Below are positions 44,212 through 61,019 of a stretch of DNA of 64,000 nt, piece after piece. Source of the DNA: Candidatus Latescibacterota bacterium (GTDB taxonomy: Bacteria > Latescibacterota > UBA2968 > UBA8231); assembly GCA_965217585.1 (NCBI GenBank), contig OZ244561.1, forward strand, positions 6,176,001-6,240,000, written 5' to 3'. Within the stretch, counting starts at the first letter, position 1; every line of letters begins with the position of its first letter. Under the pieces are notes generated by a model that worked only from the letters and a program-made list of their open reading frames with translations, did no database searches and was not told where the DNA came from. The translations under genes were made by a program, and so were the position numbers.

Positions 44212-44213
44212 TG

Positions 44214-44265: not shown

Positions 44266-44304
44266 GCCATAGACTTATTGGACACTGTTTTAGGTTTCAT
44301 CTAG

Positions 44305-44828: not shown

Positions 44829-44955
44829 GGAGGGGATGTCCTATTTTGTGGGGCCGCATAGTGCGCGATACACTTGCAATTAATGAGCAATACCACATCT
44901 TCATCTTGATTGTGATAAGAAGCACACATTCCGGCCAACTTATGGGGGCAGTGCT

Positions 44956-45252
44956 ATGGATACACACGACGATAACCTGACCGATGTTCGGACGATCAAG
45001 GCATCTGAGTTCAAGGCTAAATGCCTCAAGCTGATGGATGAGGTCGCCGATAGCGGCGTCGAGATTGTCATTACCAAGAACGGTCGCCCGGTATCGCGCC
45101 TCGTGCCTTATCACAAGGAGGCATCGAGCATGTTTGGCAGGGACCGGGACCGGATACGGATACTCGGGGACATTATTTCTCCTCTGGAATTTGACTGGGA
45201 TGAGAAAAGAGAATTGGCGCTCATCCAAGGGAAGAACCCAGACAAGCCATGA
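44956..45252 (+). CDS. Phd/YefM family antitoxin
   Basis: IKASEFKAKCLKLMDEV...IVITKNGRPVSRLVP. Confidence 0.85.
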   Translation: MDTHDDNLTDVRTIKASEFKAKCLKLMDEVADSGVEIVITKNGRPVSRLVPYHKEASSMFGRDRDRIRILGDIISPLEFDWDEKRELALIQGKNPDKP

Positions 45253-46415: not shown

Positions 46416-46431
46416 AAGCGAGTATCAAACG

Positions 46432-46749
46432 ATGAGTGAACAGTTCAAAAACGAGGCACTAGCGGCTGTGCATGAGACAGCCTTTGGACTTCACGAGGCG
46501 GGCGTCCTGAACAAAGTGACCATGAGGACATTTGACGAAATGTGCCTAACACCGTTCGAAGAGTTGACCCCGGAACAGATACGTCAAATCCGGCTACGCG
46601 AGCAGGTGAGCCAATCGGTTTTTGCTCGCTATCTGAATGTCTCGGAGGGCTTGGTGAACCAGTGGGAGTGCGGCGAAAGGCATCCGCATGGGGCTTCGCT
46701 CAAGCTGCTCACGCTTGTCGCGAGGAAGGGATTACAGGCGGTAGCGTGA
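46432..46749 (+). CDS. XRE-family HTH regulator (HigA/YiaG-like orphan antitoxin)
   Basis: IRQIRLREQVSQSVFARYLNVS...QWE.GER.P.GASLKLL. Confidence 0.8.
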   Translation: MSEQFKNEALAAVHETAFGLHEAGVLNKVTMRTFDEMCLTPFEELTPEQIRQIRLREQVSQSVFARYLNVSEGLVNQWECGERHPHGASLKLLTLVARKGLQAVA

Positions 46750-46815
46750 AACGGAAGCAGATTGGACTCAAGTCTGCCCCACGCAAGCAACGCATCATCA
46801 GAGAGGACGGCAACC

Positions 46816-47364
46816 ATGGCTATCCCCAATCCCATAATCAAGTTTACCTACGAAGATTACCTGAATACGCCGGAAGACAAGCGCTACGAGCTTCTGGACG
46901 GAGAGTTGGTTCCGACCCCTACGCCTGGAGAACTTCATCAGAGCATTTCCATCCTGCTAGGATCGAAACTGCTTCAATTCGCGTCTGAGAGTAGCTTGGG
47001 GCGGGTCTACCACGCGCCTTTTGACGTGGTGCTGTCGGATGTGGACGTGGTGCAGCCCGATCTGCTGTTCGTCTCCAATGAGCGCGGCCACATCATCACT
47101 CCCGCGAACATTCAGGGCGCACCGGACTTGGTCGTCGAAATCCTGTCCCCTTCCACAGCCGAACGCGACAGGACGTTCAAGCGCACTCTGTATGCCAATC
47201 ACGGTGTGAACGAGTACTGGATGGTGGACACCACCGCAAAAGACATAACAGTTCTGCTGCTCGGCGAGCGCGGATACGAGATCGTGGATACCTACGGCGA
47301 AGGAGAGACCTTGACTTCGCCGGCATTGCAAGGCTTTGCGTTGAATGTCGGCGATCTATTCTAA
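46816..47364 (+). CDS. Uma2 family endonuclease (copy 1)
   Basis: RYELLDGEL, HQ, VQPDL, APDLVVEILSPST, YA..GV.EYW.VD; GAGG RBS. Confidence 0.9.
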   Translation: MAIPNPIIKFTYEDYLNTPEDKRYELLDGELVPTPTPGELHQSISILLGSKLLQFASESSLGRVYHAPFDVVLSDVDVVQPDLLFVSNERGHIITPANIQGAPDLVVEILSPSTAERDRTFKRTLYANHGVNEYWMVDTTAKDITVLLLGERGYEIVDTYGEGETLTSPALQGFALNVGDLF

Positions 47365-47393
47365 GTGCCTGACAGCTTGAATTTCACGGCGGA

Positions 47394-47720
47394 TTAGCCC
47401 GTCAGTTGGTATATCCGTCCTGGCTCCACCCCTTTGGCCAGTACGTCTTCAATCGCAGGCACAAACTTCTCAGTATCCTCCAAGCGATTGCTCCTTGATA
47501 CCAACAAGATCACAGCAAGATTATACTGGGGTAAATGCTGTTGGTGTTCCATGTTCCGGTCCATCGTTACCAGCACATCGAACCCCTGCTCTGCTGCCTC
47601 TAGCAGATCTCCGTTGCGCATGCCGGTCCATCCCATCTCACGGACGGAACAAACCTCGTGCGCATCAGTGAATACGCGAGCTATACGCCAATTAAGTTGC
47701 TCATCAATCAAGACGCGCAT
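47394..47720 (-). CDS. DUF5615 PIN-like toxin
   Basis: MRVLIDEQL, NGDLL, LVTMD. Confidence 0.8.
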   Translation of the reverse strand: MRVLIDEQLNWRIARVFTDAHEVCSVREMGWTGMRNGDLLEAAEQGFDVLVTMDRNMEHQQHLPQYNLAVILLVSRSNRLEDTEKFVPAIEDVLAKGVEPGRIYQLTG

Positions 47721-47724
47721 CAGG

Positions 47725-47955
47725 TCAGGATAAAGGCTCTTGCGGTGTGCTCTCCAAGGCTTCGGCCAGAGCCAATTCGAGAAATGCCTCGGCTTGCTCG
47801 CGGCTTACGCTTGGGAAGCCGTCGAGGAATTGCTCAAGAGAATCACCGGCCTTCAGGTGAATGATAAGGCTATCTACAGGAACCCGGGTGCCCGTGAACA
47901 CGGGGGTTCCCCCTATGATCTCGGGATCAGAGTGATAAATCTGATGCTTGTCCAT
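47725..47955 (-). CDS. DUF433 antitoxin
   Basis: DPEIIGGTPVFTGTRVPV, FLDGFPSV. Confidence 0.88.
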   Translation of the reverse strand: MDKHQIYHSDPEIIGGTPVFTGTRVPVDSLIIHLKAGDSLEQFLDGFPSVSREQAEAFLELALAEALESTPQEPLS

Positions 47956-48336
47956 TTTGTCATCTCACAGGGTTGTTTCTCTTTAAGATGACTCTGCACC
48001 GCACGGTAGGCAAGTGGTTTCACGGTAGAAAACAGGTCTGCTTGCCGCCCGGTTACTGATCCCTCGGTGGGCGGCCAGCTTGGTCGAGTCCGGTGTACGT
48101 TTCAGCCTGACGGAGGGACGGCCCTTTTGCAGAAATAGGGCACCTAGCAGAAATTTGTATCGGCGCATCTATATATGCGGCAAACATAGAGAACTATCGC
48201 CCGGGAGACCCCAATTAGCCCAGCGAGTTGCTCGTGAACACACGTCGTAGGTGCATCCGGGACATGATGGCGTTGGTTCGGCACCCTGATAACAATAATA
48301 CCTAAGTAGGTGACAAAAAGTTCGTTTACACCAGGT

Positions 48337-48890
48337 TTATGACTTCAGCCAGAAATTATCAGCGTAGACGCCGGCTTTTTGCAATCGCTCCTGCGGCCTC
48401 AGTTGCCAGATATACTGGCATGCCCTATCGGCGGACTCATCGATGGAGGCGGTGGGTTGGTTGGCCAACCCGCGTCCTTTCACCCAACGCCATAAATGAT
48501 CCATCGCATTCAACTCCGGGGTGGCCCGCGGTAATAGACGAATTTCCATATTCAGGTCGGCCGCCAACCGCAAACTGCCTTCCGCTTTATGAGGCGAGCC
48601 CCGATCTTCAAAGAGGACGATCTGCCATCCGCGCCAGTGGGCGCGTATGAGACGCAGAAAAATCTGGTGGGTATCTTGCGTCCATTCCTGCGAAATCAGC
48701 AGCGCGACCTCGCCACTTTTGATGTTAAGCGCGCCGTGCAGAATCCGTTTGGCGCGCTGGCCGGTGATCGGCACCTGCACCGGTTGGCCACGGTGCCCAT
48801 AACAACTATACAACGGCGGCGTTTCGGTGAGAATGACTTCATCCAGCATGAGGATTACGGTGCGTTTCCGCGTCGCCAGCCCCTTTTTAA
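48337..48890 (-). CDS. IS630 transposase catalytic part (probably expressed by -1 frameshift at TTAAAAAGGG)
   Basis: LDE, EDRGSPH, LP...PELNAMDHLW. Confidence 0.78.
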
Positions 48891-49409
48891 CCCGCCTTTG
48901 GCTTGCCGCCAAGTCGGCGAGCGCAAGGACAAGGTATGCCGAGGCCGTTTCCATTTAATATCTAATCGAACCAGCGCTTGGCGGATACTAGACACCGAAA
49001 CGCAGAGGGTATGCTCTGCGTGTAGATACTGCGCCAATAACGACGCGGTCCATACCGTTGAATTGAGGCCGAAAAGACGAGGATCGTGATCGATGACTTC
49101 GTCTAGCAGGGGCTCAATCACGCCTTTTACTTTACCCGGTCGTCCACTGCGGGGGGCGGCTTGAAGGCGCGTCGCCAGATTCGAGATCGACGATTGCTCA
49201 AACAGCCGGATCCATTTATAGATGGCTTGACGCGTAACACACAGGCGTTGAGCAACATGAGTTACCGAATCGCCCGCCGCCACCCAAAGCAGGGCTTGCG
49301 CTCGACGTAAGACCATCGCATCCGGGGTTTGGACGACCAAAGCCTCCAACAAGCGGCGCTCGCGGCGGGGAAGGGAAAACGGAGTCATAAGCGGCCTCCG
49401 GGCATACAA
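48855..49409 (-). CDS. IS630 transposase N-terminal HTH part
   Basis: RRAQAL, VA..L.VTRQAIYKW, PRSGRP, WT...L; overlaps the catalytic ORF in the -1 frame. Confidence 0.8.
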   Translation of the reverse strand: MYARRPLMTPFSLPRRERRLLEALVVQTPDAMVLRRAQALLWVAAGDSVTHVAQRLCVTRQAIYKWIRLFEQSSISNLATRLQAAPRSGRPGKVKGVIEPLLDEVIDHDPRLFGLNSTVWTASLLAQYLHAEHTLCVSVSSIRQALVRLDIKWKRPRHTLSLRSPTWRQAKGGLKRGWRRGNAP

Positions 49410-49495
49410 CTAAGTTTAGAGGGCAAGGGAAAAGTGTCAACGGACTTTTTGTTAACTACTTAGTCCGTGCCCCATTGAACCTCGACGACATATCC

Positions 49496-50866
49496 TTAAT
49501 AGAGTGCGGTGGTGTATCCAGGATTGAGAGACAGAAAGCTATTAGGATTGGGAACGGCGAGGCGCTGGTCAACAGAGAGCAGATCAATATCGATCAACTG
49601 ATAGGGGTTCTCGCCATGGAGAAGGCGTAGCACTTGGGCTAGTGCCAGCGTAGCCGCTACGGTGCCTACGAAGGGTGCGCCGACTGCCTTACCAGCTAGA
49701 AGCGTAACGCCGCAGCGATCCAGCTCGCCACTTTTGAGCATCTCTTGATAGGCAGGGCGATCCGCAACCGTTTCGGAGGGTGTCGCCGACTTCCAAATAT
49801 CCGCCGCCGAACGTGCCTCTGGTAGTACGTGTAGGCGTATGGTACGGAAGTTTTGTTGCCCTCTGCCAAGTCCGGCCTCGACAACCAGATCAAATCCCAC
49901 TTGATCGAGTGCTTGCCGTCCTAGAGCATTATCCAGACCACACAACGCGATGGCTGGTTCTTCATTTTGGCGATGGAAGCTGTTATCGAACCGTCGCTCC
50001 TGCAACGCTGTCGCAAACCCGCGTCGTTCTGCCCAAGTAGCCATGGCACGGGTCTTTTTCTGGCCTGCCATCGCCGCGTCGCTCAAAATTGACGTGCTTT
50101 CGGTTGATGGCGTGATCTCGTCTATATCCTGCAGCACGATAGAGAGACTACTTAGCTCTTTATATGGCAGTAGCCCAAGACCCCAAAGATACGCTTGCCC
50201 TAGGTGTCCGAGCCCGATTAGCCAAAGCCGCGATGGGAGATAGGTTATCTGAGGCTCGCCTAGATCAGGCTCAAGCCAATTTATGTCTGCGGCAGGCCGC
50301 CACAGTGAGAATCCTATCGGCCGTCGTCCAGCCGCAGGACTGCCTCCTTCCACGAATAGGAAGGCTTCATTAACTGCGAGGCCAGCGGACAGCATAGCCG
50401 CCAATGGTACAGTCGGTCCTGGGGCCGGCATTAGCTTTGAGTGCGCCGGAAGGATACCACCTCGCCATCCGGCGACTGCCGTGCGTATGTGAAACCCGGG
50501 CCGCTGTCGACGAGGCCCTCCGCCAATAACAATAGTCGGCGTTCCATCGGCTGGAGGCGTAAGCGTGCCACCGAGATCTATCACAGCCTCGTGGAGTCTA
50601 CACCGCAGGGGTAGTGGCACCTTCAGCGGTACATCTAAGTCGCCTTCTACGGAAACCCCACCGAGGAACACGCGACGTCCCAGTGCAACTGCTGTCAACA
50701 ACGCAATTTGATTGAGTGAATTCCGCGACTCTCGGCCGTGGATGGTAAGCGCAAGGCGATAGCCTTGAAAGAGACTCTTGGCCTCGTCGAGACTCTTGGC
50801 CTCTCCGCTATCGAGTGCGTACTTGACTAAGCGGTGCAGGTTGTCGGCGTGTGGTTTGGCAGTCAT
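49496..50866 (-). CDS. bilD: E1 ubiquitin-activating-like enzyme (BilD-like)
   Basis: Degenerate N-terminal adenylation-like domain; IGLGHLG, QDID, LCGLDN..GR, EAGLG; candidate catalytic Cys385 in LDRCG; operon context. Confidence 0.8.
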   Translation of the reverse strand: MTAKPHADNLHRLVKYALDSGEAKSLDEAKSLFQGYRLALTIHGRESRNSLNQIALLTAVALGRRVFLGGVSVEGDLDVPLKVPLPLRCRLHEAVIDLGGTLTPPADGTPTIVIGGGPRRQRPGFHIRTAVAGWRGGILPAHSKLMPAPGPTVPLAAMLSAGLAVNEAFLFVEGGSPAAGRRPIGFSLWRPAADINWLEPDLGEPQITYLPSRLWLIGLGHLGQAYLWGLGLLPYKELSSLSIVLQDIDEITPSTESTSILSDAAMAGQKKTRAMATWAERRGFATALQERRFDNSFHRQNEEPAIALCGLDNALGRQALDQVGFDLVVEAGLGRGQQNFRTIRLHVLPEARSAADIWKSATPSETVADRPAYQEMLKSGELDRCGVTLLAGKAVGAPFVGTVAATLALAQVLRLLHGENPYQLIDIDLLSVDQRLAVPNPNSFLSLNPGYTTALY

Positions 50867-50876
50867 GGATAATCCT

Positions 50877-51395
50877 CTATAAGCCGATGTGAAGAAAGGC
50901 CCTCCGGGTAGCGGGCGTGATGGTTTGCCAACGCTTCGAGCCTTGATAGCGGTAAATACCGATTTCGCGTTTCGAAAGCGGGCGAGCGGCGAAGCGCGGC
51001 AGGATTATTGCCAAATGACCTGCCTGCGCAATCATGGGATAGGTGCGATCTGACTCGCTCTGCTGTGATCCGCTTGGATGGACATGAATGTCGGCCACGA
51101 CAGATAGCCCTCTCTCTTTACAAATTGCCCAGAGCGTCCCGAAGTATCGCCCGTCGAAGCGGACTATGCCGGTATCAAGGCAATGCGGATCGAGATCATC
51201 GTACAGGACGAAATCGGTAATACGGGCACGTTTGCCCTTGTAATGCCCAAGCAGAAAAGCTCCACTTTCCCTAGACTTGCCGTGACCGCGTTCCCGTAAG
51301 CAGATCAGCAAACGACGCCAGAGAAACCAGGAACAGGACAACTCATGTCGCGGTGCAAGAAGGCGGCGTATAGTCTCCGCTATGGAGAAGTTCAT
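50877..51395 (-). CDS. bilC: JAB/JAMM metallopeptidase (BilC-like deubiquitinase)
   Basis: ESGAFLLG and HVH...S..D JAMM motif; GGAG RBS before MNFS. Confidence 0.82.
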
Positions 51396-51816
51396 GGACG
51401 ATCTCCAAGTATTGAACAATTCCTTCTACTGGCCGCCATATTTTTGACGGCATCTCGGTTCGCCAATTTTCATGCCCAGCAAAGCTTTCACGGTCACAAG
51501 GTAGATACAGAGCAGAGCCATTTTTCCAGTCGGTGCGAAAAACCGCTGAGACACGACCTCCTTGGCCTTGTGGCCAGAGATTGAATTCCAAGATAGTATC
51601 TTGCCCAGGATCCCATGGGCCGCCTGTAGGCGGAGCTTGCGGATATCCCTGGCAATTGAAGCGCATAACGTATTGACGCTCATCCTTCGCGGGCACGGAG
51701 ATCTGGACAAAGGGCCAGTCGATGCGAATCAAGCGCCAGCGTCCTTCTACTTGCCCGAGGCGGAACGCAGCCTTGGCCACGTCCGCCTCGAATGCTCGCT
51801 GGTCAGGAGCGCTCAA
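51343..51816 (-). CDS. bilB: E2 ubiquitin-conjugating-like protein (BilB-like)
   Basis: GYPQAPP E2 motif; candidate catalytic Cys107 in LYLPCDR; 4-nt overlap with the Ubl gene. Confidence 0.78.
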
Positions 51817-52322
51817 GCTACGCTCCCGGTCGAGCCGTTCACCCTCTCGTCGGGGGCTAGGTCAAATGCTTGGCTGCAAGCGGGGCAATCCACCAGTGTG
51901 CCAATATGCGTCCCTGGAGTCGGCCTTTCGTGAGTACCGACCATTTGCAAAGCATACTCACCGGCGTCTTTTGGCTCCATGCCGAATTCCTTTTCGGCTG
52001 CCCAGCACTTGACACGGGCTATGGTCGCGCTTGGCCCGAAGTTGCGCTCGACGGTACGACCATTGAAGGTCACGCTGACTTTGACGAGACAACAGCGATG
52101 CAGGTGGATCTTTATATCCGTCCCCTTAACGCAATCGCTCACCTTCTCGTCTTCGTCGAGTGGATCGTCTTTGTCTTCCAAGAAGATGCACACATCGGCG
52201 GCGAGGCAATGCTTGTCGATCAGCTTGGTTTTGACAGTTGCGAATGTGGCGTCATCCTCAACTTCGACATGCTGTATCTCGCGGGATCCTTCACACTGAT
52301 AAAACAGATCGAGTGTAGCCAT
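51813..52322 (-). CDS. bilA: ISG15-like tandem ubiquitin-like protein (BilA-like)
   Basis: 169 aa, two beta-grasp-sized halves; ends ERVNG(163)-STGSVA; AGGAGG RBS. Confidence 0.78.
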
Positions 52323-52381
52323 AATACGATCCTCCTAGGCTAGAGCGAAGCTCCATTGCCCGTCTCTGCCCTTCACTCTAT

Positions 52382-52411
52382 TAATCGGGTAGGAGGGTAG
52401 AAAGCGGAAAG
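52382..52411 (-). promoter_or_regulatory. Putative alternative-sigma promoter CTTTCCG-N17-CGATTA upstream of bilA
   Basis: Same boxes and spacing occur upstream of the sigma gene (57358-57387). Confidence 0.7.
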
Positions 52412-52429
52412 TCGAGGTAGAAAAACTTT

Positions 52430-55400
52430 TTATGGGAGAGTCAGTGGCCCACGCGGCGTAGCAGCACAGACGAAAAAGTGCGGGCATCGCGGGCATGTTA
52501 CTTCGTTGATATTAGGTGGGAATTGCCCCTTCGCAATCTCTCTCAACATCTCGTCACTTCTATCTCGTCGTTTGTTGAGCTTATTCGACGAGATCAGTAC
52601 GTCATCGACCATCTCATCCATAAGATGCAGTGCTTGGACCATCGCACGAGTACCGAAATGGGCCTGACCAGCCAATCGATAAAGAGTGTAGTCGAGGCGA
52701 TCATATTCATCTGTGCGCTTGCGTCCTGTTCGGATCTTGCGTAGTGAGATCTTTCCGTCCGGCATATCAGCTATTTCGTCCGGCTCCACGACCACGCGAC
52801 CATTTGGAAAATCTACTGCTAACGGCTCAACCTCACGGGAACGCCGTTCAGTGCTGGCCCTGATTAGGGCCCCAACTAGTTGCAAAGCAAGGCGGCGGTG
52901 TTCGTCAGCGGAATTATGGTCGACAGGCCCATGTTTACGCCAAATTGTATCGAAGGCGGCTTCAGCCTCGGAGAGCGTCGGCTCAACTTCGCGTCGGCGC
53001 TCGGACACCCATTGGATGAGTTTGTAGAGGCAGTTATGGGTTTGAGAATAGGCAGTCGCTTTATGGATACCACCAAGCCCCAACATATGGGTGTAAAAGA
53101 AACGGCGAGGGCATTTCTCATAGGAGATGAGTGTACTATCTGTGACGTGCCATTCGGTGGATTGCGTTACTTGGATAGGCATCGGGCTCTGCATGTGGGC
53201 TGGTCTCGGTAAGACCACTGGATGGGCAATTTTGTCGATTGTCCTCTCTGGTAGCCAATCTAGAAAACGGGACGGAGATCGATTTCTGCCGTTGGAGCTT
53301 CGACGCGCCAAGTGGAGGCACAGATGGGTTTGCGCTCGAGAGAGCGCAACGAAAAACAGGCATTCCTCCTCGTGTTCGTGATTCCGCTTGGCTTCTTCCG
53401 AGACCGAAAAGCCCTCTGATCCCTCAGTCATGCCGATGGGCGGTGGGCATCGTACTCCACGGTACGAAGAGGGGAAGCTCGAAACCGTCAGGCCGGGTAC
53501 ATGGACTGCTTCAAACTCTAGCCCCTTACTACCATGAACAGTCATCAGCCGCACTGCATCTAGGTGGAGTGCGGCTGATGGCACTTGGCGCAAATCCCGC
53601 TCTTCGGCGAGTAGTACGAGCCGTCGGATACGATCCAGCATCCGCTGAATCGGCAAACCTGTGCCGGTCGGAGGCCTCTCGCGGACGAAGTTAAGGAATT
53701 GCCAAATCGCGACGCTCCGAATGTAGTCGGTGGTTGTCGTGGCTTGGGCCATCTCCCGCACAAGGCTAGTGCGATCAAGCAGATACGTTGAGATAAACTC
53801 CCATGCGGACACGCTTGATGAGAGCCCCGACAGATCCTGCGCGAGGCGAGCAAGTGCTGATGAGCCATCAGGCGAGATACCTTGAGCCTCAGCGAGCGTC
53901 TCTAGACCCGAAAGGGCCGGCTGATTGCTATCTCGCAGATGGTGCACTGCGGTATAGACATCTTGCATCGAAAGACCATAGCGAGGCATTGCTCCGACCC
54001 GCGCAAGGCCATTACCAAACGGATCAACCGCGAGGCTTAGAAGTGCTAGTAAATCACGCACTTCCTCGCGTTCGAACAAGCTGCCAAGATGCAAAACAGG
54101 AATGCCGTATGCCTCGAGGGCTGCGGCGATTTCATTCAGACGACGATTTGAGCGACAGAGCACGGCCTGATCACGGAGAGGAACGCCCGCGCATTCGAGG
54201 TCTCGGATGCTTCCGGCGATACCTCCGCCTTCGTCGTCGGGGGTGTCGTAGTACCGGACTTCCGGTTTTCCGAGACCAGAACCTCGGTCAGCGGCAAGGC
54301 CGAGTGGCAACATGCTCTCGGATGCACCCATCCGGGGAGCAACACTGACGAAACTGGCGACGATCTGCTCTGTCGATCTGTAGTTGATGGCGAGTTGGTC
54401 AATCACTGCACCTGGATAGTCGTCGCAAAAACGAGCCATATTGGTAGGGGACGCTCCGCGGAATCGGTAAATGGACTGGCGTGAGTCACCGACTACCCAC
54501 AAGCGTTTGCCATCTCCAGCGACCGCTTTTAACAAGCGTGCGCTCGCCCGGTTTACGTCCTGATATTCGTCGACGAGAAGATGGCGATGCCGTAGTTGAA
54601 TAGCCTGCTTGAGTGCTGGATCGGACTCTAGGAGCAATGCGGGCTGCATGATAAGGTCGCCAAAATCGACGGCACCCTGATCGCGCTTGGCTTGTTCGTA
54701 TAGATCATAGATGTCGGCAATCTCCAAGCACTTCTCGGCTGCCTTGTGAGCCTCATCGTCGTCTGCGGTCGTTTGCATAGCCTCGGCGAGCTTTCGATAG
54801 CGGATTCGGTCAACAAGTTCATCCTTAGCCCGCGAGATGGCAGGGATCACGTCTCGCAACACCATCGTCGGATCCCAGAAGTTGCGATAGTGGACAAGGG
54901 GCAGCGTCGGAAGGCTATCCTCAAGCACATCGATCGCATCACTACGGTCGAACAAGACTGGATTGGACGGTAGACCGAGGCGGTCATAGTGGCGCCGTAT
55001 AAGATCGAGGCCGAAAGCATGGAACGTCCCGATCCAAATACGTGCAGCGGCTTCTGGCACTATGGCCACCAGTCGCTCCAATAACTCACCGGCAGCCCGG
55101 TTCGAGAAGGTAAGGACGAGCAAAGAAGCTGGGTCAACGCCTTCTGCCAAGAGCGATTCAACGCGTTTTACCAGTGTCCGTGTTTTTCCGGTTCCCGGCC
55201 CAGCCTGAAGAAGGAATGGGGCGTCGCGATGTGTGGAAGCCCGGTCTTGCGACTGGTCCGGACTCGGTGTATAAGACGAAGCCATCGCCGGAGCTACTTC
55301 CTCCACCATCGGAAGTAGAAGGGCATCAAATATCTGCTGTCGGACGAGCGCCTTTGGCAAGTTCATGTGCGAGGCGATAGCTGAAGCGGTCATGGCCTTA

Positions 55401-55855
55401 GCTATGTAGAGCCGACGTGCAAAGCTCCGGGGTAGCAGAAATTCCCGAGCGAAAACATTGGCCTGTAGTTCACGCCGTTCCCGAGTGCCATAGTCCTCGA
55501 CACGCTGCAACCCAACGGGTACTACCTCAGTTGAACGGGATAGATCGATGTCATCCTTCGTACAAGCCGTCGAATCAGCGTGGATGTGTGCATGTCCAAG
55601 TTCGTGAGCCACAAGTAATGTACGGTCAATGATATCCCCGGCCATTTCACAGCAGATCGTACCGCTCTGTTCGTCGAACACCGCCCGGGCATTTTTTAGA
55701 GCAGGATCGCCCGGCGCAAGATAGACGAGTTCAAGGTCAAGGTGAGCCACAGCGGCCGTAATAAGTGCCGTAGTATCCACAGGATCAGTCCCCGCCTCGA
55801 TAATCTTATCGCGCAGATGCGCTGCGGACTTTCGGATTGGCTTGAAGGCTTCCAT
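52430..55855 (-). CDS. ImmA/IrrE (M78) metallopeptidase - UvrD/PcrA SF1 helicase - Fe-S PD-(D/E)XK-like fusion
   Basis: AHELGH + ELQANVFAREFLLP; AGPGTGKT, LVDEYQD, VGDSRQSIYRFRGA, NYRS, TVHGSKGLEF, VALSRA; CPRRF...CPRCPHFFVC. Confidence 0.88.
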   Translation of the reverse strand: MEAFKPIRKSAAHLRDKIIEAGTDPVDTTALITAAVAHLDLELVYLAPGDPALKNARAVFDEQSGTICCEMAGDIIDRTLLVAHELGHAHIHADSTACTKDDIDLSRSTEVVPVGLQRVEDYGTRERRELQANVFAREFLLPRSFARRLYIAKAMTASAIASHMNLPKALVRQQIFDALLLPMVEEVAPAMASSYTPSPDQSQDRASTHRDAPFLLQAGPGTGKTRTLVKRVESLLAEGVDPASLLVLTFSNRAAGELLERLVAIVPEAAARIWIGTFHAFGLDLIRRHYDRLGLPSNPVLFDRSDAIDVLEDSLPTLPLVHYRNFWDPTMVLRDVIPAISRAKDELVDRIRYRKLAEAMQTTADDDEAHKAAEKCLEIADIYDLYEQAKRDQGAVDFGDLIMQPALLLESDPALKQAIQLRHRHLLVDEYQDVNRASARLLKAVAGDGKRLWVVGDSRQSIYRFRGASPTNMARFCDDYPGAVIDQLAINYRSTEQIVASFVSVAPRMGASESMLPLGLAADRGSGLGKPEVRYYDTPDDEGGGIAGSIRDLECAGVPLRDQAVLCRSNRRLNEIAAALEAYGIPVLHLGSLFEREEVRDLLALLSLAVDPFGNGLARVGAMPRYGLSMQDVYTAVHHLRDSNQPALSGLETLAEAQGISPDGSSALARLAQDLSGLSSSVSAWEFISTYLLDRTSLVREMAQATTTTDYIRSVAIWQFLNFVRERPPTGTGLPIQRMLDRIRRLVLLAEERDLRQVPSAALHLDAVRLMTVHGSKGLEFEAVHVPGLTVSSFPSSYRGVRCPPPIGMTEGSEGFSVSEEAKRNHEHEEECLFFVALSRAQTHLCLHLARRSSNGRNRSPSRFLDWLPERTIDKIAHPVVLPRPAHMQSPMPIQVTQSTEWHVTDSTLISYEKCPRRFFYTHMLGLGGIHKATAYSQTHNCLYKLIQWVSERRREVEPTLSEAEAAFDTIWRKHGPVDHNSADEHRRLALQLVGALIRASTERRSREVEPLAVDFPNGRVVVEPDEIADMPDGKISLRKIRTGRKRTDEYDRLDYTLYRLAGQAHFGTRAMVQALHLMDEMVDDVLISSNKLNKRRDRSDEMLREIAKGQFPPNINEVTCPRCPHFFVCAATPRGPLTLP

Positions 55856-55859
55856 CTGT

Positions 55860-56519
55860 TTAGAAACTCAGAAGTTGGTGCTGTTGGTCGTCGCTTAGCC
55901 CCGAACTCTTAACAGCCTCGACGAAGCTTTGTCGTTGGTTGCTGTCAGGCTTGTCGGCGGCCTTGTAAAACTGACGACTAGTATTTGTGCTTGGTGCAGC
56001 AAAGTAGGCAGTTACTAGGCTGATCGGAGTATTGAGCGCATCCGCAAGACACTGTAGAAAACTGCTAGGGATGGTATCCGGTTCAATTTGACGATCTCGC
56101 AGCTTGGCGACGAAAACGGTGTTTGCACCGATCCCGTCTGCTAACGCACGAAACGCTGCACGACTTAGTTCGGCGAAGGGATTGGGAGCATCTGCAACTT
56201 CCGGCGACGGAGCACGGTTGCTGGTCAGCTTGGTTGCTTGACGCACGGCGTGTAGGCGATTGTGGAATCGGCTCATTGCACGCGAGACTACAGGACTCAC
56301 ACGGTTCAGATCAATCTCAGCCTTTGAATCGACTTCAGGCTCGGGTCGAAGGGCATCCATAGCGAGTTCGATGGCAAACTCCGTGAGAGAATCGGCATAC
56401 TTCGGGAAGCGCCTAACGAAATCGTCAAGCAGCTCTGCGTCGGGTACACGCTTCGCTAGCGAAAACTCGTACAGCACATCGCGCAACGGTGCCGCGCTGG
56501 GGGTCAAATTCATGGTCAT
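55860..56519 (-). CDS. Hypothetical protein with C-terminal XRE-like HTH (putative anti-sigma/peptidase substrate)
   Basis: Coupled to sigma (4-nt overlap) and helicase (4-nt gap); FRALADGIG...FVAKLRDR...FLQCLADALN resembles a Cro/XRE fold. Confidence 0.55.
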   Translation of the reverse strand: MTMNLTPSAAPLRDVLYEFSLAKRVPDAELLDDFVRRFPKYADSLTEFAIELAMDALRPEPEVDSKAEIDLNRVSPVVSRAMSRFHNRLHAVRQATKLTSNRAPSPEVADAPNPFAELSRAAFRALADGIGANTVFVAKLRDRQIEPDTIPSSFLQCLADALNTPISLVTAYFAAPSTNTSRQFYKAADKPDSNQRQSFVEAVKSSGLSDDQQHQLLSF

Positions 56520-57307
56520 GTCTCCTTTTTTAAGTGTGAAAGTTTCTCTGCTGCTCTTGAGAGACGATTACGAATGGTTCGACCTGAGACATTACATATT
56601 GTCGCTACAGTCACCTCATCAGGATTATTAGATTCGATTTTGTACTCCATGACATGACAGAGGATCACAGCCTTGCGCTCGTCATACGGCAAGGTATCAA
56701 TCGCTTCGTATATCTCTCTTAGCAGGACAGAACTCTCTGCTGTATCCTGACTCCTCAACGCTTCTATAAGTCGGGTGGGGACCTCCTTATGGGGAGGGCT
56801 ATATTCGACGTCATCGGCGTGGTCTGATGGGAACACTAATGGCTTGAGGCGGGCTTTTTCACTTCGCACGAGGTCGGTGTAAAAAGTATAGAACGCCCGG
56901 TTGAAGCGGCATTCAAAATAGTCAAGATCGTCGCGATTTTCTTCCGTGCCATCAGTGGCAAACAACTCGCCAAACTGTCCAAGTACTTCCTCCCGGACAT
57001 CCACAGCAGTCGGGAGTTTGTTGGCCGGGATTTTGGCTAATAAGATTGCTTCACATCGGGTGAGCAAGACAGGAAGCACTGCCTTGAAGACGGCGTCGTT
57101 GCTATTTCGACGTGCGTCCCGGATTAGATGGACCAGACACTCAGAATATACATAATCGGGTGCCTGATGATCGGCAACAGCGAGGTGGCATAGGAGCGTC
57201 GCTGAACTCTGGGCAAGAATCTTATTGATCTGTGCCTCCACTCGATGAGGACGGACATAGAGATTTCCAGTTTTATCGCGTTTGGTCAATGGACAAACCA
57301 TTTTCAT
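56516..57307 (-). CDS. Sigma-70 family (ECF-like) RNA polymerase sigma factor
   Basis: Region-4 signature AIDTLPYDERKAVIL...VATICNVSGRTIRNRLSRAAEKL; AAGGAG RBS. Confidence 0.72.
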   Translation of the reverse strand: MKMVCPLTKRDKTGNLYVRPHRVEAQINKILAQSSATLLCHLAVADHQAPDYVYSECLVHLIRDARRNSNDAVFKAVLPVLLTRCEAILLAKIPANKLPTAVDVREEVLGQFGELFATDGTEENRDDLDYFECRFNRAFYTFYTDLVRSEKARLKPLVFPSDHADDVEYSPPHKEVPTRLIEALRSQDTAESSVLLREIYEAIDTLPYDERKAVILCHVMEYKIESNNPDEVTVATICNVSGRTIRNRLSRAAEKLSHLKKET

Positions 57308-57357
57308 TCTCCTTTATATGAAGCGGATACCGGGCATACAGATCCCTTATACTTCTA

Positions 57358-57387
57358 TAATCGTATTAAGTTGGGGAAACCGGAAAG
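57358..57387 (-). promoter_or_regulatory. Putative autoregulatory promoter CTTTCCG-N17-CGATTA upstream of the sigma gene
   Basis: Matches the motif upstream of bilA. Confidence 0.7.
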
Positions 57388-57402
57388 ATGCCTAAACTTT
57401 TT

Positions 57403-58224
57403 CTAATTTGCAGTATCGACTGGAGCACCAGCAGCTTGTAAAGGTGCCCTAAGCTGCTGACCTGCCTCCACTTCTGGATACTCCAACCACTGCCGTCCAT
57501 CGAGCGTATTCCCACCCGCTTTAGGAGTGCGCCCACCCCATTGCTTAAAGAAAAAGGCGACGCGCTGGGCCTGACACCGGTCGCGCAATGCCCGCACCCA
57601 TTCTGCTTGCACCGGACGCGCTCCCGGCCCGCTCTCACCCCCGGCGATTACCCAATGAATACCCGCGAAATCCACCGCGCCGATTGGACCGAGCAACGGC
57701 TCGAAGGAAACGAAGCGCACGGAGGCATTGGTCTGTTGCAAGTGCCGGAGGCGCGTCAAAGCCGCGTGGTTTTCGACGGACACGCCGAGCCAGATATGCG
57801 AGGGAGCCGCTTGGCCCCGGCGATGCCCTGAGCTTGCCGAAGCACCAGTCGAAGGGTAGCGCTCTTGGACGAAACGGCGCATCAGTGAACTGCGCTTGGT
57901 AAGCACTTGATAGATATGCCAATCGGCGCGCTCCATGGTGTCGAATACGCGCTCAATGTACTCGGTGGGAATGTCCTTGTGGAAGAGATCGCTCATCGAA
58001 TTGACGAAGATGAGCTGTGAACGCCGCCAGTGCATGGGTTGTTCGAGGCGCTTGGGGCGAAGGGTTAGATCAAAGCCCGACTCGAAAGGGTGTCCCTCGA
58101 CGCCGCGGAAACGCTCAGAAAGGCGCTCGGCATAGCAATGGTCGCAGCCAGCGCTAATCTTCGTGCAGCCGGTGGCTGGGTTCCAAGTGCTGTTAGTCCA
58201 CTCGATAGTGCTTTTGCGAGACAT
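57403..58224 (-). CDS. DUF5131 (phage Gp37/Gp68-like) radical-SAM-like protein
   Basis: IEWT..TWNP.TGCTKISAGCDHCYA, FVNSMSDLFH, LTKR, SFEPLL, GGESG, FFFKQWG. Confidence 0.88.
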   Translation of the reverse strand: MSRKSTIEWTNSTWNPATGCTKISAGCDHCYAERLSERFRGVEGHPFESGFDLTLRPKRLEQPMHWRRSQLIFVNSMSDLFHKDIPTEYIERVFDTMERADWHIYQVLTKRSSLMRRFVQERYPSTGASASSGHRRGQAAPSHIWLGVSVENHAALTRLRHLQQTNASVRFVSFEPLLGPIGAVDFAGIHWVIAGGESGPGARPVQAEWVRALRDRCQAQRVAFFFKQWGGRTPKAGGNTLDGRQWLEYPEVEAGQQLRAPLQAAGAPVDTAN

Positions 58225-58263
58225 GAGAGACCTTTACGCAACCAAAAATCATAACTGAACATA

Positions 58264-58291
58264 ATTGTAGTATTTCCCGGTCCAATGTCAA
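58264..58291 (-). promoter_or_regulatory. Sigma70-type promoter for the DUF5131 gene
   Basis: TTGACA-N16-TACAAT, 40 nt upstream of the ATG. Confidence 0.6.
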
Positions 58292-58459
58292 GGTGGCCTT
58301 GGGTACGGGCGACCTGCCGAGGACAGCGACCCCCTCCGCATGCACGATAATCCCGCTATCGAGTTGACAATGCTCAGAGCGTCTATCTTATTGACACATA
58401 AGTACTGAACCGCCGCCTGACGGAAGGCGCAAATTCTTTGTGGGCATTAGGTTATATCC

Positions 58460-58801
58460 ATGCATACTGTAGTGGAATTACCTGAATATTTGCGCCGGGC
58501 AGACCGGTTGCTATCGGAGGATGAGCGCCAAGAGCTGGTCGATTATCTGGCAGAGCATCCCGAAGCGGGTATCATAATGCGCGGCATGGGAGGGATCAGG
58601 AAGCTCCGATGGGCACGCACGGGGATGGGCAAGCGCGGCGGTGTACGGGTTATCTACTACTACCACAACGAGCAGATGCCGCTTTACCTCTTAACATTGT
58701 TCGGCAAAGGAGCGAAAGACGATCTCAACTCCTCTGAGCGTCGTGCGTTGCGCGACTTCGTCCACAACTTGATCGAGACATGGAGAAGGCCCCATGAGTA
58801 G
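58460..58801 (+). CDS. RelE/HigB family toxin
   Basis: P.AG.IM.G.GGIRKLRW...GKRGGVRVIYY, LLTLFGK. Confidence 0.88.
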   Translation: MHTVVELPEYLRRADRLLSEDERQELVDYLAEHPEAGIIMRGMGGIRKLRWARTGMGKRGGVRVIYYYHNEQMPLYLLTLFGKGAKDDLNSSERRALRDFVHNLIETWRRPHE

Positions 58802-59087
58802 CGTTTTTGAGAGTATCAAACAAGGATTGACTGAAGCGATCGAGCACGCGGCAGGCCAGCCAAGTCAGGCGGTCGTGCATCCTCCAAAGACCACCGATGT
58901 AAAAGCTATTCGGGAGCAAGTCGGTATGACGCAAACGGCCTTTGCGGCCGCATTTGGTATTAGCCTCAGCACCCTGCGGCATTGGGAGCGAGGGGATCGG
59001 ACCCCTAAAGGACCCGCACGGGTGTTGCTACATGTGGCGGCTCGCGAACCCCAGGCGGTTTTGCGAGCTTTGAAGAAAGCGAGTTAA
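58794..59087 (+). CDS. HigA-like XRE HTH antitoxin
   Basis: FESIKQGL.EA, DVKAIRE..GMTQ..FA...TLRHWERG.R.P.GPA. Confidence 0.88.
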   Translation: MSSVFESIKQGLTEAIEHAAGQPSQAVVHPPKTTDVKAIREQVGMTQTAFAAAFGISLSTLRHWERGDRTPKGPARVLLHVAAREPQAVLRALKKAS

Positions 59088-59125
59088 AGACCGCTCGACA
59101 TGCTTTTTGGCTCTTCTTCGCCCTC

Positions 59126-59222
59126 TGATTATCGGGATGAATATCCTAAAGTGACGCAAGCAGATTTGGACCGTGCGGTATTCCGCGTTGGACTCAAGCC
59201 TGCGCCACGTAAGCAACGCATC
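59126..59222 (+). pseudogene. Remnant of a BrnA-like antitoxin N-terminus
   Basis: DYRDEYPKVTQADLDRAVFRVGLKPAPRKQRI stops where the RHH part (ITIxLD...) would begin; in frame with the Uma2 gene. Confidence 0.5.
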
Positions 59223-59243
59223 GCCAGAGAGAGGACGGCAACC

Positions 59244-59792
59244 ATGGCTATCCCCAATCCCGTAGTCAAGTTTACCTACGAAGACTACCTGAATACGCCG
59301 GAAGACAAGCGCTACGAGCTTCTGGACGGAGAGTTGGTTCCGACTCCTGCACCTGGAGAACGTCACCAGAGCATTTCCATCCTGCTAGGATCAAAACTGT
59401 TTCAATTTGCGTCTGAGAATAGCTTGGGGCGGGTCTATCTCGCGCCTTTTGACGTGGTGCTGTCGGACATGGACGTGGTGCAGCCCGATCTGCTGTTCGT
59501 CTCCAATGAGCGCGGCCACATCATCACCCCTGCAAACATTCAGGGGGCGCCGGACTTGGTCGTCGAAATCCTGTCCCCCTCCACAGCCGAACGCGATAAG
59601 ACGTTCAAGCGTGCGCTATATGCCAGACACGGCGTGAACGAATACTGGATGGTGGACACTACCGCAAAAGACATAACGGTCCTGTTGCTCGGCGAGCGCG
59701 GATACGAGATCGTGGATACCTACGGCGAAGGAGAGACCTTGACTTCGCCGACCTTGCAAGGCTTCGCGCTGAATATCGGCGATCTATTCTAA
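59244..59792 (+). CDS. Uma2 family endonuclease (copy 2)
   Basis: Near-identical to 46816-47364, same length (549 nt). Confidence 0.9.
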   Translation: MAIPNPVVKFTYEDYLNTPEDKRYELLDGELVPTPAPGERHQSISILLGSKLFQFASENSLGRVYLAPFDVVLSDMDVVQPDLLFVSNERGHIITPANIQGAPDLVVEILSPSTAERDKTFKRALYARHGVNEYWMVDTTAKDITVLLLGERGYEIVDTYGEGETLTSPTLQGFALNIGDLF

Positions 59793-59836
59793 ATTTCCTA
59801 CCTAGTCGGCGTTTCTGCGTTCCAATCCAGTATTTC

Positions 59837-60835
59837 CTACAGCTCCACCCGCCGCCCGCTATGGGCCGATTCAAAAGCCGCCTCGACCACTTTGAGCGTG
59901 CCGTCGGCATGGTCGGCCATATAGGCGGGGGTCTCTTCTCCGCGCATACATTGCTGGAAAAAGTCGATGGCCGGCTGGAAAGGCGGCGTGCCAGTCTGGA
60001 AGGTCTCGCTGCGGCTCTCATTGGAGCCGCTGACCACGTCAAAGCTGCTCTCCGCACCGGGATGATACGGGGCGGGCACAACCAGTCGGCCTTGGTCTCC
60101 AGTGATGAGGGCATGAGGCCCGCCACGACCATCGAAACTGCAGTACAAGGTCGCGGTGAGGCCGTCGGGGTATTCGAGGATGAGCGAGGTGGCCACGTCC
60201 ACTCCGACTTGCGTGTCAAAGCGCATATGCGCCTGAACGCCAACAGGATCGGTGCCGGCAATAAAGCGCGAGAAGGTGATAGGGTACACGCCGCCATCGT
60301 AAATACTGCCGCCGCCCAGCGCTTTAATCAGGCGGATGTTGCTGGGGTCGTTGACGACGAAGGTCATGCCGGCGTTAATGTGGCGCAGGGTGCCGATTTC
60401 GCCCGCGGCGATGATTTCCTTGAGACGGCGGCTCTGGGGATGGTGCATAAAGACAAAGGCCTCAAAGAGCAGCACGTCGGCCTTGCGGCAAGCCTCGACC
60501 ATTTGCCGCCCTTCGGCCGCGGTGACGGCTAGCGGTTTTTCGCAAAAGACGTGTTTGCCCGCCTCGGCGGCTTTGATGGTCCATTCGGCGTGCAGCGAAT
60601 TGGGCAGCGAGATATAGATCGCGTCGATGTCCGGGTGGTCGAGCAGGGCTTGGTAACTGCCCAGCGCCACGGGGATATCGTGGTCGCGGGCAAAGGCATC
60701 GGCGGTGGCCTGGCTGCGGCTGGCTATGGCATAGACTTGGGCACCGGGCGTGGCGCGGGCCGAGGGGATGAAGGCGGTGACGCCAATTCTGGCGGTGCTG
60801 AGGATGCCCCATTGGATGGGTCGTGAACTGGTCAT
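59837..60835 (-). CDS. Gfo/Idh/MocA family oxidoreductase
   Basis: WGILSTARIG, LPNSLH, HVFCEKP, GGGSIYD. Confidence 0.9.
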   Translation of the reverse strand: MTSSRPIQWGILSTARIGVTAFIPSARATPGAQVYAIASRSQATADAFARDHDIPVALGSYQALLDHPDIDAIYISLPNSLHAEWTIKAAEAGKHVFCEKPLAVTAAEGRQMVEACRKADVLLFEAFVFMHHPQSRRLKEIIAAGEIGTLRHINAGMTFVVNDPSNIRLIKALGGGSIYDGGVYPITFSRFIAGTDPVGVQAHMRFDTQVGVDVATSLILEYPDGLTATLYCSFDGRGGPHALITGDQGRLVVPAPYHPGAESSFDVVSGSNESRSETFQTGTPPFQPAIDFFQQCMRGEETPAYMADHADGTLKVVEAAFESAHSGRRVEL

Positions 60836-61019
60836 TGAAGAACCTCCCGCAACCTAATTTTATGTGATTTTAACAGTATGGGAATACTATATATAGACCA
60901 AATAGCCCAACGAAGTAAATGCGGCCGGTTTTTCAGAGAGACGGCCAGAGTTCCCAACGCGATTGCGGACTGCCGCCGGGATACTATCTTGATCCAGCAA
61001 CTGGATGGAGACAATCTGC

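Follow-up and report, generated by a model that had tools for sequence, protein, structure and literature searches.

The seven genes at 49496-57307 of the window (the whole stretch of 64,000 nucleotides analysed here, positions 6,176,001 to 6,240,000 of contig OZ244561.1 from a Candidatus Latescibacterota bacterium) combine bilABCD, an operon for the conjugation of a ubiquitin-like protein (Ubl), with three upstream genes. These encode a sigma-like protein, a protein of 219 residues called p219, and a fusion of an M78 peptidase, a UvrD-type helicase, and a nuclease-like domain. The arrangement is far beyond chance because the same gene order is found in nearly all related loci, in many phyla. 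One promoter-like motif precedes both the sigma gene and bilA, and its two copies co-vary within loci; the modelled first protein has a two-domain sigma fold, and the peptidase and ATPase motifs of the fusion are intact. Our reading, which we propose tentatively and with a little less than even confidence, is that the seven genes are one mobile cassette in which a protease switch that senses DNA would act through the cassette's own sigma factor, resembling the extracytoplasmic function (ECF) type, to activate the Ubl operon. An earlier sequence-only reading of this DNA had proposed a regulatory module of this kind. Its observation has been confirmed and extended, its interpretation is supported in part, and the anti-sigma and cleavage steps are plausible. 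The features of the locus are as follows.

56516-57307, minus strand: sigma-like gene, 263 amino acids (aa), ECF-like by predicted fold
55860-56519, minus strand: p219 gene, 219 aa, family without description
52430-55855, minus strand: fusion gene, 1141 aa, M78 peptidase, UvrD helicase, and PD-(D/E)XK fold with four cysteines
55271-55855, minus strand: fusion residues 1-195, M78 (ImmA/IrrE-type) zinc-peptidase domain with HELGH at 84-88
53171-55270, minus strand: fusion residues 196-895, UvrD/PcrA-type superfamily 1 (SF1) helicase core
52430-53170, minus strand: fusion residues 896-1141, Cas4/AddB-like PD-(D/E)XK fold with four invariant cysteines and degenerate catalytic residues
51813-52322, minus strand: bilA, ISG15-like double-Ubl protein, 169 aa (PADLOC BilA, E 2.4e-53)
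51343-51816, minus strand: bilB, E2-like (Pfam DUF7665, E 2e-70; PADLOC BilB, E 9.9e-62)
50877-51419, minus strand: bilC, JAB/JAMM deubiquitinase (PADLOC BilC, E 5.5e-67; weak Pfam match to Prok-JAB)
49496-50866, minus strand: bilD, E1-like adenylating enzyme (PADLOC BilD, E 3.3e-167)
57358-57386, minus strand: promoter-like motif P_sigma, TTTCCG at 57386-57381, 17-nt spacer, CGATTA at 57363-57358, ending 50 nt before the sigma ATG
52382-52410, minus strand: promoter-like motif P_bilA, TTTCCG, 17 nt, CGATTA, ending 59 nt before the bilA ATG
52323-52381, minus strand: conserved bilA leader, GT-AAGGGACG-GAG...GGCAAT...GCC, with a candidate helix pairing with the Shine-Dalgarno sequence

Gene content and linkage of the cassette

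All seven open reading frames lie on the minus strand in one orientation, in the order sigma, p219, fusion, bilA, bilB, bilC, and bilD that had already been described, and the tight coupling of the first three has been verified: the sigma and p219 genes share 4 nt (ATGA), and p219 and the fusion gene are separated by 4 nt (TAAACAGATG). No terminator was found between the fusion gene and bilA. The recognition of the last four genes as a Bil operon holds as well, based on the Ubl-E2-JAB-E1 order and on the match of each gene to its own PADLOC model (E 2.4e-53 to 3.3e-167). The 162-position model of BilA is matched over its whole length, and the protein has G163 followed by a 6-residue tail, STGSVA. 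Millman et al. mutated G163 of their BilA (here and below, published work is cited from those parts of the papers that were covered by the literature search). The TTG start listed for bilC is probably too far upstream and the true start slightly downstream, because the PADLOC match starts at residue 17.

The neighbourhoods of p219 relatives were compared in several samples. Scanning a genome set of one genome per species with a p219 alignment resulted in 74 loci, whose neighbours were identified by tblastn with the window proteins. The loci belong to Latescibacterota, Alpha-, Beta-, and Gammaproteobacteria, Acidobacteriota, Longimicrobiales, Binatia, Desulforhopalus, a bin labelled Patescibacteria, and Candidatus Tumulicola. 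L004 is a locus of the soil isolate Paraburkholderia phenoliruptrix LMG 22037. Considering the evaluable loci, the sigma gene is located directly 5' in 69 of 70, the three-part fusion 3' in 62 of 66, and BilABCD next in 55 of 64. The nine exceptions with respect to Bil are diverse. L033 is interrupted within the helicase gene, L024 and L072 lack BilD alone, the Acidoferrales loci L015 and L021 have only a partial M78 match, L020 contains sigma and p219 only, L070 is devoid of Bil genes, and L074 is an orphan of 30% identity followed by glycosidases. The ninth, L026 from a gammaproteobacterial metagenome-assembled genome (10670-14421), encodes sigma, p219, a standalone M78 protein of 176 aa, and a protein of 1058 aa for which no Pfam family was found, and has no Bil operon at the locus. 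It may represent a different sensor or effector on the same switch. A metagenome set obtained by scanning for the M78 domain comprises at least 415 relatives; in the best 80, from which counts were taken, sigma was found in 62/62, the fusion in 51/51, and BilABCD in 41/41 loci.

Starting from the other end of the cassette, eight of 37 plasmid records matching BilD were inspected. Five of them carry the whole trio, down to a BilD identity of 42-45%. In another one the sigma gene is cut by IS256, in one only a remnant of the fusion C-terminus is left next to insertion sequence (IS) and recombinase genes, and one from Cupriavidus has sigma- and p219-like genes without the fusion. Full-length plasmid relatives of about 28-45% identity were found in 75 records for sigma and in 81 records for the fusion. 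Of 17 fusion-bearing plasmid loci examined, seven precede BilABCD (confirmed with PADLOC for L091), nine precede a Bub-type operon, and one is cut by IS66. The Bub-type operon consists of Multi_ubiq, DUF6791+ThiF, and DUF6527 (Pfam, one example), which fits the Type II Bub architecture of Ye et al. The trio is linked to Bub in records from Klebsiella, Acinetobacter, Leptolyngbya, Rhizobium, Mesorhizobium, Agrobacterium, Roseovarius, and Robbsia. On the Robbsia plasmid (L099) the trio is divergent from the Bub operon, and therefore simple co-transcription or read-through is ruled out at this locus. The 150-nt divergent spacer of L099 (5640-5830) contains an 11-nt inverted repeat, GCTTGCCACGG ... 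CGGTGGCAAGC, which may correspond to two divergent promoters or to an operator.

Whether the three genes travel together had been left by the sequence-only reading to a neighbourhood search. They do, and they travel beside Ubl operons of two kinds, Type I Bil and Type II Bub; every trio inspected is either located before such an operon or is an orphan. No trio was seen beside other defence types such as CBASS among the inspected loci, a sampling that began from Bil-linked sequences. Searching the genomes of the class with the BilD model found matches in 5 of 401 genomes, which is too sparse to estimate the share of Bil operons that have the trio. Viral contigs gave just two partial p219 relatives, and for this reason we do not call the cassette phage-borne.

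The first protein had been named sigma-70-like, and this assignment is borne out by its predicted fold. The Pfam scan gave Sigma70_r4_2 as sole family match (E 1.6e-7, 31.3 bits, cut-off 25.7). The AlphaFold2 model, built with 26 homologues, has a mean pLDDT of 85, and its best Foldseek matches are the ECF sigmas SigH, RpoE, AlgU, SigL, SigW, and CnrH (probability about 1.0, E about 3e-3). In VIA-align, all 50 matches listed are sigma factors or sigma-containing complexes with Z scores of 8.1-10.0; residues 54-263 align over 152-157 residues to the two-domain proteins sigmaE, AlgU, and SigL, and the sigma-4 domain alone aligns to sigmaE region 4 with Z 10.0 and a root-mean-square deviation of 2.6 over 69 residues. 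About 53 aa at the N-terminus form an extension, which is followed by a divergent sigma-2 and then by a sigma-4 domain that contains an insertion. By modelled fold, it is predicted to be a two-domain sigma factor. We call it ECF-like because the curated ECF sequence models failed.

No family for p219 was found in Pfam, NCBIfam, or PADLOC. Its relatives number 631 at E<=1e-3, almost all with lengths of 213-224 aa. A structural model from 33 sequences (pLDDT 75) contains helices at 12-57 and 76-99, a disordered variable linker at about 97-112 that precedes the invariant residues N113-P114-F115, a compact domain at about 113-175, and a conserved tail. The protein had been described as helix-turn-helix (HTH)-like, and this part stands: an all-against-all structural search identified an XRE-type HTH at residues of about 109-177 (Z 5.0-7.0). 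Its position had to be corrected to the C-terminal half. The HTH matches the P22 c2 repressor and, with Z 5.0-5.3, the DNA-binding domains of DdrO, CapH, and ImmR; Z scores of 5.0-7.0 are ordinary for a domain of 60 residues and many unrelated XRE proteins match alike, so that the fold is shown and not the function. DdrO, CapH, and ImmR are known substrates of M78 peptidases (Lau et al. 2022). The N-terminal helices (8-59) match just generic three-helix bundles with Z <= 5. Other approaches did not point to a family: a profile search of the Protein Data Bank with p219 found designed helical repeats alone, Foldseek with the whole model gave E values above 1, and a protein atlas search returned the unnamed clusters of p219 itself and, at rank 11, one cluster bearing HTH_31. 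Membership in the CapH family was considered and rejected, with hhalign giving a probability of 0.7% against a CapH-like protein. Because no Cys or His is conserved in the 33 aligned sequences, p219 is not a zinc anti-sigma. We regard p219 as a candidate for a protease-labile inhibitor.

The fusion protein matches Peptidase_M78 (PF06114) at residues 81-171 with 25.5 bits (cut-off 22), UvrD-helicase (PF00580) with E 2.2e-62 as well as UvrD_C, and PDDEXK_1 at residues 907-1130 with E 9.9e-12; the PcrA, Rep, and UvrD models also match. Conservation was assessed in 61 non-identical homologues including Bub-linked ones. In accordance with the peptidase and helicase named by the sequence-only reading, HExxH (H84, E85, H88) is invariant in 61/61, and the Walker motifs A (GPGTGKT) and B (DEYQD) show little or no variation in the 61. 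The iron-sulfur (Fe-S) nuclease-like domain was recognised correctly insofar as the four Fe-S-type cysteines C915, C1121, C1124, and C1130 are invariant, whereas the core residues of a PD-(D/E)XK nuclease are not conserved: motif III reads R-(K/R)-(I/V)-R-T-G, and the Asp of motif II is often Asn, Ser, or Ala. Generation of single-stranded DNA (ssDNA) by the fusion, which had been suggested as one mode of action, is thus unlikely to take place through resection, given a nuclease-like domain without catalytic residues. Judged by its motifs, the protein appears to combine a functional peptidase and a functional ATPase motor with a DNA-binding domain that bears a cluster but is not catalytic. Machines of the AddAB/RecBCD type include inactivated nuclease-like domains resembling that of the fusion.

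The promoter-like motif before sigma and bilA

An asymmetric, bipartite motif, CTTTCCGG(G)TT-N13-CGAT(C/T)A, is present both in the 107 nt between the fusion gene and bilA and in the region 5' of sigma. We read it as the hexamer TTTCCG, a 17-nt spacer, and the hexamer CGATYA. This cassette-specific motif is the new element described here. The pattern TTTCCG-N15-18-CGATYA has exactly two matches in the window, 57358-57386 and 52382-52410, both on the gene strand, where 0.08 are expected from shuffles. The longer pattern matches four times in the whole 7.3-Mb genome, and two of these matches are P_sigma and P_bilA. The feature delimited by the sequence-only reading had its end at 57387, coincident with P_sigma. 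No sigma-70-type promoter was found at P_sigma or P_bilA in a scan for the sigma-70 consensus.

The motif is conserved in position and spacing. TTCCG is located about 91 nt 5' of bilA in 56/59 loci, and the full motif about 90 nt 5' of sigma in 58/63 loci. The offset from element to element is nearly always 24 nt at both promoters, corresponding to the 17-nt spacer. In the genome set, the strict pattern is present at P_sigma in 49/69 and at P_bilA in 48/59 loci, with 24 matches in 1.32 Mb elsewhere; the corresponding numbers for the metagenome set are 40/62, 33/51, and 17 in 0.88 Mb. Within a locus, P_sigma and P_bilA are alike at 18.13 of 24 positions (47 non-identical loci), compared to 16.45 +/- 0.21 when partners are shuffled, and none of 10,000 shuffles reaches the observed value in this test, which counts related loci as independent. 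Matched derived states are nevertheless present in both copies in several separate lineages, with GGGATTAA in L054, CCATTAAG in L039, GCGCTTA and GCTTCCGG in L058, GCGACTT in L089, and TTTTCCnTTTT in L086.

Additional copies of the motif have been found within and beside the cassette. In Bub-type cassettes, a variant, TTACCGG...CGATT, precedes the Ubl gene, and a second copy is located within the sigma gene, at +560 to +587 nt and about 200 nt before the p219-like gene, in 10/10 loci examined (L090-L098, L100). A sigma-internal copy is also present in some Bil-type loci, and further occurrences are in L026, L116, L138, L139, L159, L160, L172, and L174. At the internal copy, the residue preceding the Ile codon varies between Ala, Ser, and Thr and its codon always ends with CG. 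The constancy of CG despite the varying residue therefore indicates selection on the DNA and not on the protein. In nine loci of one clade, an extra copy is located about 100 nt 5' of a two-gene, SbcCD-like operon (Metallophos and AAA_27/SMC-like) that adjoins the cassette directly upstream, and in two loci an extra copy precedes a caspase gene beside the cassette. The genes behind these copies were identified with Pfam in one locus per kind and by tblastn in the others.

L042, 4145; also L044, L047, L048, L052, L062, L147, L153, and L175: extra motif before Metallophos + AAA_27
L009, 7352, and L011, 7359: extra motif before a Peptidase_C14 (caspase) gene beside the cassette

SbcCD-like pairs are neighbours of the cassette in L023, L038, L055, L088, L091, L111, and L118 as well. 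A motif with -35 element, 17-nt spacer, and -10 element that precedes different operons, always beside the sigma gene, has the appearance of a sigma regulon. The sequence-only reading had proposed that sigma transcribes its own gene and bilABCD. Such control predicts one motif before both the sigma operon and bilA, as is seen, and together with the co-variation of the copies this makes it well supported, at the level of sequence comparison, that the cassette's own sigma would drive its own operon and the Ubl operon.

Downstream of P_bilA, the bilA leader is conserved across phyla over about 60 nt (window 52323-52381, minus strand, and L002-L067), with the blocks GTAAGGGACG-GAG and GGCAAT-nnn-GCC. 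A candidate 6-bp helix pairs GCACUU with GGAGUGC, which contains the Shine-Dalgarno sequence; 82% of the cells are paired compared to 31-59% in slid controls, and four of the six pairs are changed on both sides. A consensus RNA fold of the leader gave just a 4-pair hairpin with little covariation. The leader may act as an operator or provide a second level of control through translation.

Proposed switch and alternative explanations

In the proposed switch, sigma, p219, and the fusion would be present at low level at rest, with p219 keeping sigma inactive. We favour a version in which the helical N-terminal part of p219 sequesters sigma, as an anti-sigma would, and the XRE-type domain serves as handle for the M78 peptidase. 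The UvrD-type motor and the four-cysteine nuclease-like domain would engage abnormal DNA, such as ssDNA, free ends, or phage DNA that is damaged or being replicated, and this engagement would activate the fused peptidase domain to cleave p219, perhaps within the variable linker at 97-112. Freed sigma would then direct RNA polymerase to TTTCCGG-17 nt-CGATYA promoters. Of these, the copy before the sigma operon would provide feedback and the copy before bilA a burst of BilABCD, which would conjugate Ubl to phage proteins. Cleavage of p219 by the M78 domain is suggested by the precedent of ImmA/ImmR, IrrE/DdrO, and CapP/CapH and by gene pairing, fold, and position, which resemble those of a CapH/CapP-like pair. 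DNA is a candidate trigger because a motor is fused to the peptidase and because CapP is reported to be activated by ssDNA (Lau et al. 2022). The anti-sigma role of p219 is favoured by the translational coupling of sigma and p219 and by the N-terminal half of p219, which is otherwise unexplained.

The inhibition of sigma by p219 is a supposition: complex prediction for sigma and p219 scored 0.79, and the control with an unrelated protein in place of sigma scored 0.75, so that it counts neither way. Several observations weigh against this scheme. The sequence of p219 is not similar to any anti-sigma domain, and its HTH is C-terminal, unlike those of CapH, DdrO, and ImmR. Gene conversion between the two promoter copies could be another source of their similarity within loci, and the treatment of related loci as independent in that comparison has to be kept in mind as well. 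The degenerate nuclease residues leave the sensing mode of the helicase part unexplained. Some loci without the fusion, such as L085, have kept sigma, p219, and both promoter copies, so that the switch does not strictly require the helicase. In addition, the anti-sigma role that the sequence-only reading had given to p219 has been weakened by the XRE-type HTH, as a DNA-binding-type fold fits a repressor equally well.

An unlikely, though serious, alternative is accordingly a switch of the same layout in which p219 is a DNA-binding repressor like CapH or DdrO. It would bind at the sigma-dependent promoters or at the sequence following the -10 element and be cleaved by the M78 domain upon a DNA signal, and sigma would provide host-independent promoter recognition and feedback. 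This role is favoured because p219 has an HTH and because a conserved block follows the -10 element. Residues 109-177 resemble phage repressors as well as DdrO, CapH, and ImmR, the segment KLRDRQI in helix 3 varies little or not at all, and the purine-rich block GTAAGGGACG after the -10 element of P_bilA has a similar counterpart after P_sigma. The known partners of M78 peptidases are repressors (Lau et al. 2022), and in another genome a divergent Bil operon has a classical divergent pair of HTH_3 and Peptidase_M78 at the position equivalent to that of the trio. A repressor is less compatible with the two promoters of the window, at which no inverted repeat of the type bound by XRE dimers was seen. 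The 4-nt overlap of sigma and p219 is a translational coupling usual in sigma/anti-sigma pairs, and the additional N-terminal helical half of about 100 residues would be left without an assigned role.

The identity of the 263-aa protein is a further point at which the proposed switch could fail. The Pfam scan did not detect Sigma70_r2, so that the sequence support for the sigma-2 domain is weak, TIGR02937 scored 34.4 bits, below its cut-off of 42.9, in line with the failure of the ECF sequence models, and RefSeq names homologues "LuxR family" or "DNA-binding response regulator". One homologue matches GerE with E 1.3e-5. The protein could thus be a LuxR/GerE-type activator, and not a sigma factor, that binds the motif and recruits the housekeeping holoenzyme. 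We consider this distinctly improbable given an asymmetric motif of hexamer, 17 nt, and hexamer at a fixed distance from the genes, which is not accompanied by a sigma-70-type promoter.

Two other explanations place the trio outside of transcriptional control. The trio or the peptidase-helicase could be a working partner of the Ubl pathway by marking or recognising targets on DNA, processing Ubl, or being a substrate of conjugation. The linkage of the inspected trios to Ubl-conjugation operons, and not to CBASS or other systems, would be explained by such a partnership, and Type II Bub operons are typically without a JAB peptidase (Ye et al.). It is improbable in our view, because bilABCD expressed alone from pBAD, instead of the native promoters, confers defence (Millman et al.), so that the trio is dispensable for the effector step. 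Type I Bil also has a JAB peptidase of its own, BilC, the paired sigma-type promoters argue for transcriptional control, and the divergent orientation at one Bub locus is regulator-like. Alternatively, the trio could be an independent helicase defence or repair module, similar to Gabija GajB or AddAB, that shares islands with Bil. PADLOC GajB models match the helicase core (best E 4.6e-73), and the cassette is located in a low-GC island with Uma2, RelE-like, and IS630 genes. These matches reflect only the common UvrD fold, and no match to a GajA model, the expected partner, was found by PADLOC among the eight proteins scanned. Given also the degenerate nuclease core, an order and spacing relative to bilA that are fixed across phyla, and the promoter motif common to bilA, an independent module seems most improbable.

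Relation to known systems and genomic setting

The cassette resembles CapH + CapP in that genes for an M78 (HExxH) peptidase and a small XRE-HTH protein lie side by side and immediately precede an anti-phage operon. As in that system, PF06114 scores above cut-off, HExxH is invariant, and the putative partner p219 has an XRE fold. M78 peptidases cleave adjacent HTH partners (ImmA/ImmR, IrrE/DdrO, CapP/CapH; Lau et al. 2022), and CapH/CapP genes have been reported at 25/162 Type II Bil operons, where they are nearly always divergent (Chambers et al., preprint), and at 168/544 Bub operons (Ye et al., preprint). Both CapW and CapH+CapP have been found at Bub operons by Ye et al. and Gong et al. 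The trio differs from CapH/CapP in several respects. Its peptidase is one part of a protein that also contains a UvrD helicase and a four-cysteine nuclease-like domain, p219 belongs to a separate family without Pfam HTH match and with a C-terminal HTH (CapH-type proteins have an N-terminal HTH with an HTH_3-type sequence), and a sigma with its own promoter type is integral to the cassette. In addition, the trio is co-oriented with the operon in the window and at nearly all loci, the divergent Bub locus being the exception, whereas CapH/CapP is divergent.

The DdvS/DdvA pair, an ECF sigma and its anti-sigma that control a CBASS-CRISPR island in Myxococcus xanthus (Bernal-Bernal et al. 2024), is similar to the proposed module in using a dedicated ECF-type sigma as output for defence operons, with proteolysis of the inhibitor as the proposed trigger. 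DdvA is located in the membrane and has a zinc centre and a CHAT domain on the periplasmic side, whereas p219 is predicted to be cytoplasmic, has an HTH, and lacks conserved Cys and His. In the cassette, which is mobile and present in many phyla, the candidate protease is an M78 domain that is attached to a DNA motor in the cytoplasm. CapW/BrxR and CapK + CapS, which respond to DNA damage and regulate CBASS, Bil, and Bub operons, are found upstream of the same kinds of operon as the trio, with the presumed purpose of allowing expression only when DNA is disturbed. CapW/BrxR is a WYL ligand sensor and CapK + CapS a kinase acting on a STAS repressor, and neither their families nor their logic are related to the trio. 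The three published families of regulators, as named in the CapK/CapS paper, act via derepression of a host-type promoter. The architecture of the fusion, a UvrD-like SF1 motor and then a PD-(D/E)XK fold bearing a four-cysteine signature, is comparable to the AddAB and RecBCD helicase-nucleases and Cas4. In contrast to these, the catalytic D/E-x-K has been replaced by R-x-R in the fusion, and a peptidase is located at its N-terminus.

Given these precedents, the novelty of the module had been overstated by the sequence-only reading. A sentence in Lau et al. 2022 refers to 24 CBASS systems in which CapH and CapP are accompanied by a sigma-70-family sigma, and DdvS/DdvA is known. The literature search found no description of the sigma/p219/peptidase-helicase module or of its promoter; the supplementary tables of Lau, Chambers, and Ye were outside this search and may list the genes, for example under CapH+CapP. 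The helicase or the module beside Bil or Bub is not mentioned in the text searched of the Bil, Bub, CapH/CapP, and CapK/CapS papers, and the searched part of Hör et al. does not mention the upstream genes or a helicase. Bil defence is known from an artificial promoter only (Millman et al.), and the natural switching-on is not addressed in the literature searched. If the proposed switch were true, most Type I Bil and many Type II Bub operons would be under the control of a self-contained sensor/sigma unit. This unit would unite the cleavage of an HTH partner, as in CapH/CapP, with a sigma/anti-sigma pair, as in DdvS/DdvA, and add a DNA motor as the likely sensor. It would also be a compact orthogonal sigma/promoter pair that is apparently functional in at least nine phylum-level groups. 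A broader proposal, which is possible but which we hold with clear reservations, is that the cassette is the main native on-switch of bacterial Ubl immunity. It would then be a portable, host-independent unit that works in any phylum, in which a mobile sigma is held by a new cytoplasmic inhibitor combining anti-sigma and HTH handle, is released when the motor-M78 fusion meets invading DNA, and recruits SbcCD-like and caspase-like genes.

Contigs from two metatranscriptome libraries, from a relative that is 90-99% alike, span the fusion/p219 and p219/sigma junctions (54296-56869), and the same two libraries have contigs over the neighbouring DUF5131 gene (57451-58124). No contigs were found for bilABCD in the two runs, in which only contigs were available and the libraries possibly contained DNA, so that missing cover proves nothing. 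As such contigs carry no information on transcript starts, strand, or level, no conclusion has been drawn from them. The relative has a 12-nt insertion after 55301 and is without 36 nt at 57819-57854.

The cassette segment has a G+C content of 0.53-0.57 compared to 0.61-0.64 in the flanks, and is part of a low-GC island at 44000-62000 of the window (0.48-0.57). It looks like an acquired island because of its low G+C content and its IS630, Uma2, RelE-like, and DUF5131 neighbours. The DUF5131 gene (57403-58224, minus strand; Pfam E 5.9e-96) adjoins the cassette upstream, and its protein matches the PADLOC candidate models PDC-M41B and PDC-M30B (E about 1e-98). We place it outside the cassette because L001, a nearly identical locus with a p219 100% identical to that of the window, is the only other one in which it accompanies the cassette. 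Other genes of the island are two Uma2-family putative endonuclease genes (46762-47364 and 59100-59792), a RelE-like gene (58460-58801), and an IS630-type transposase in two overlapping open reading frames (48337-48954 and 48855-49409).

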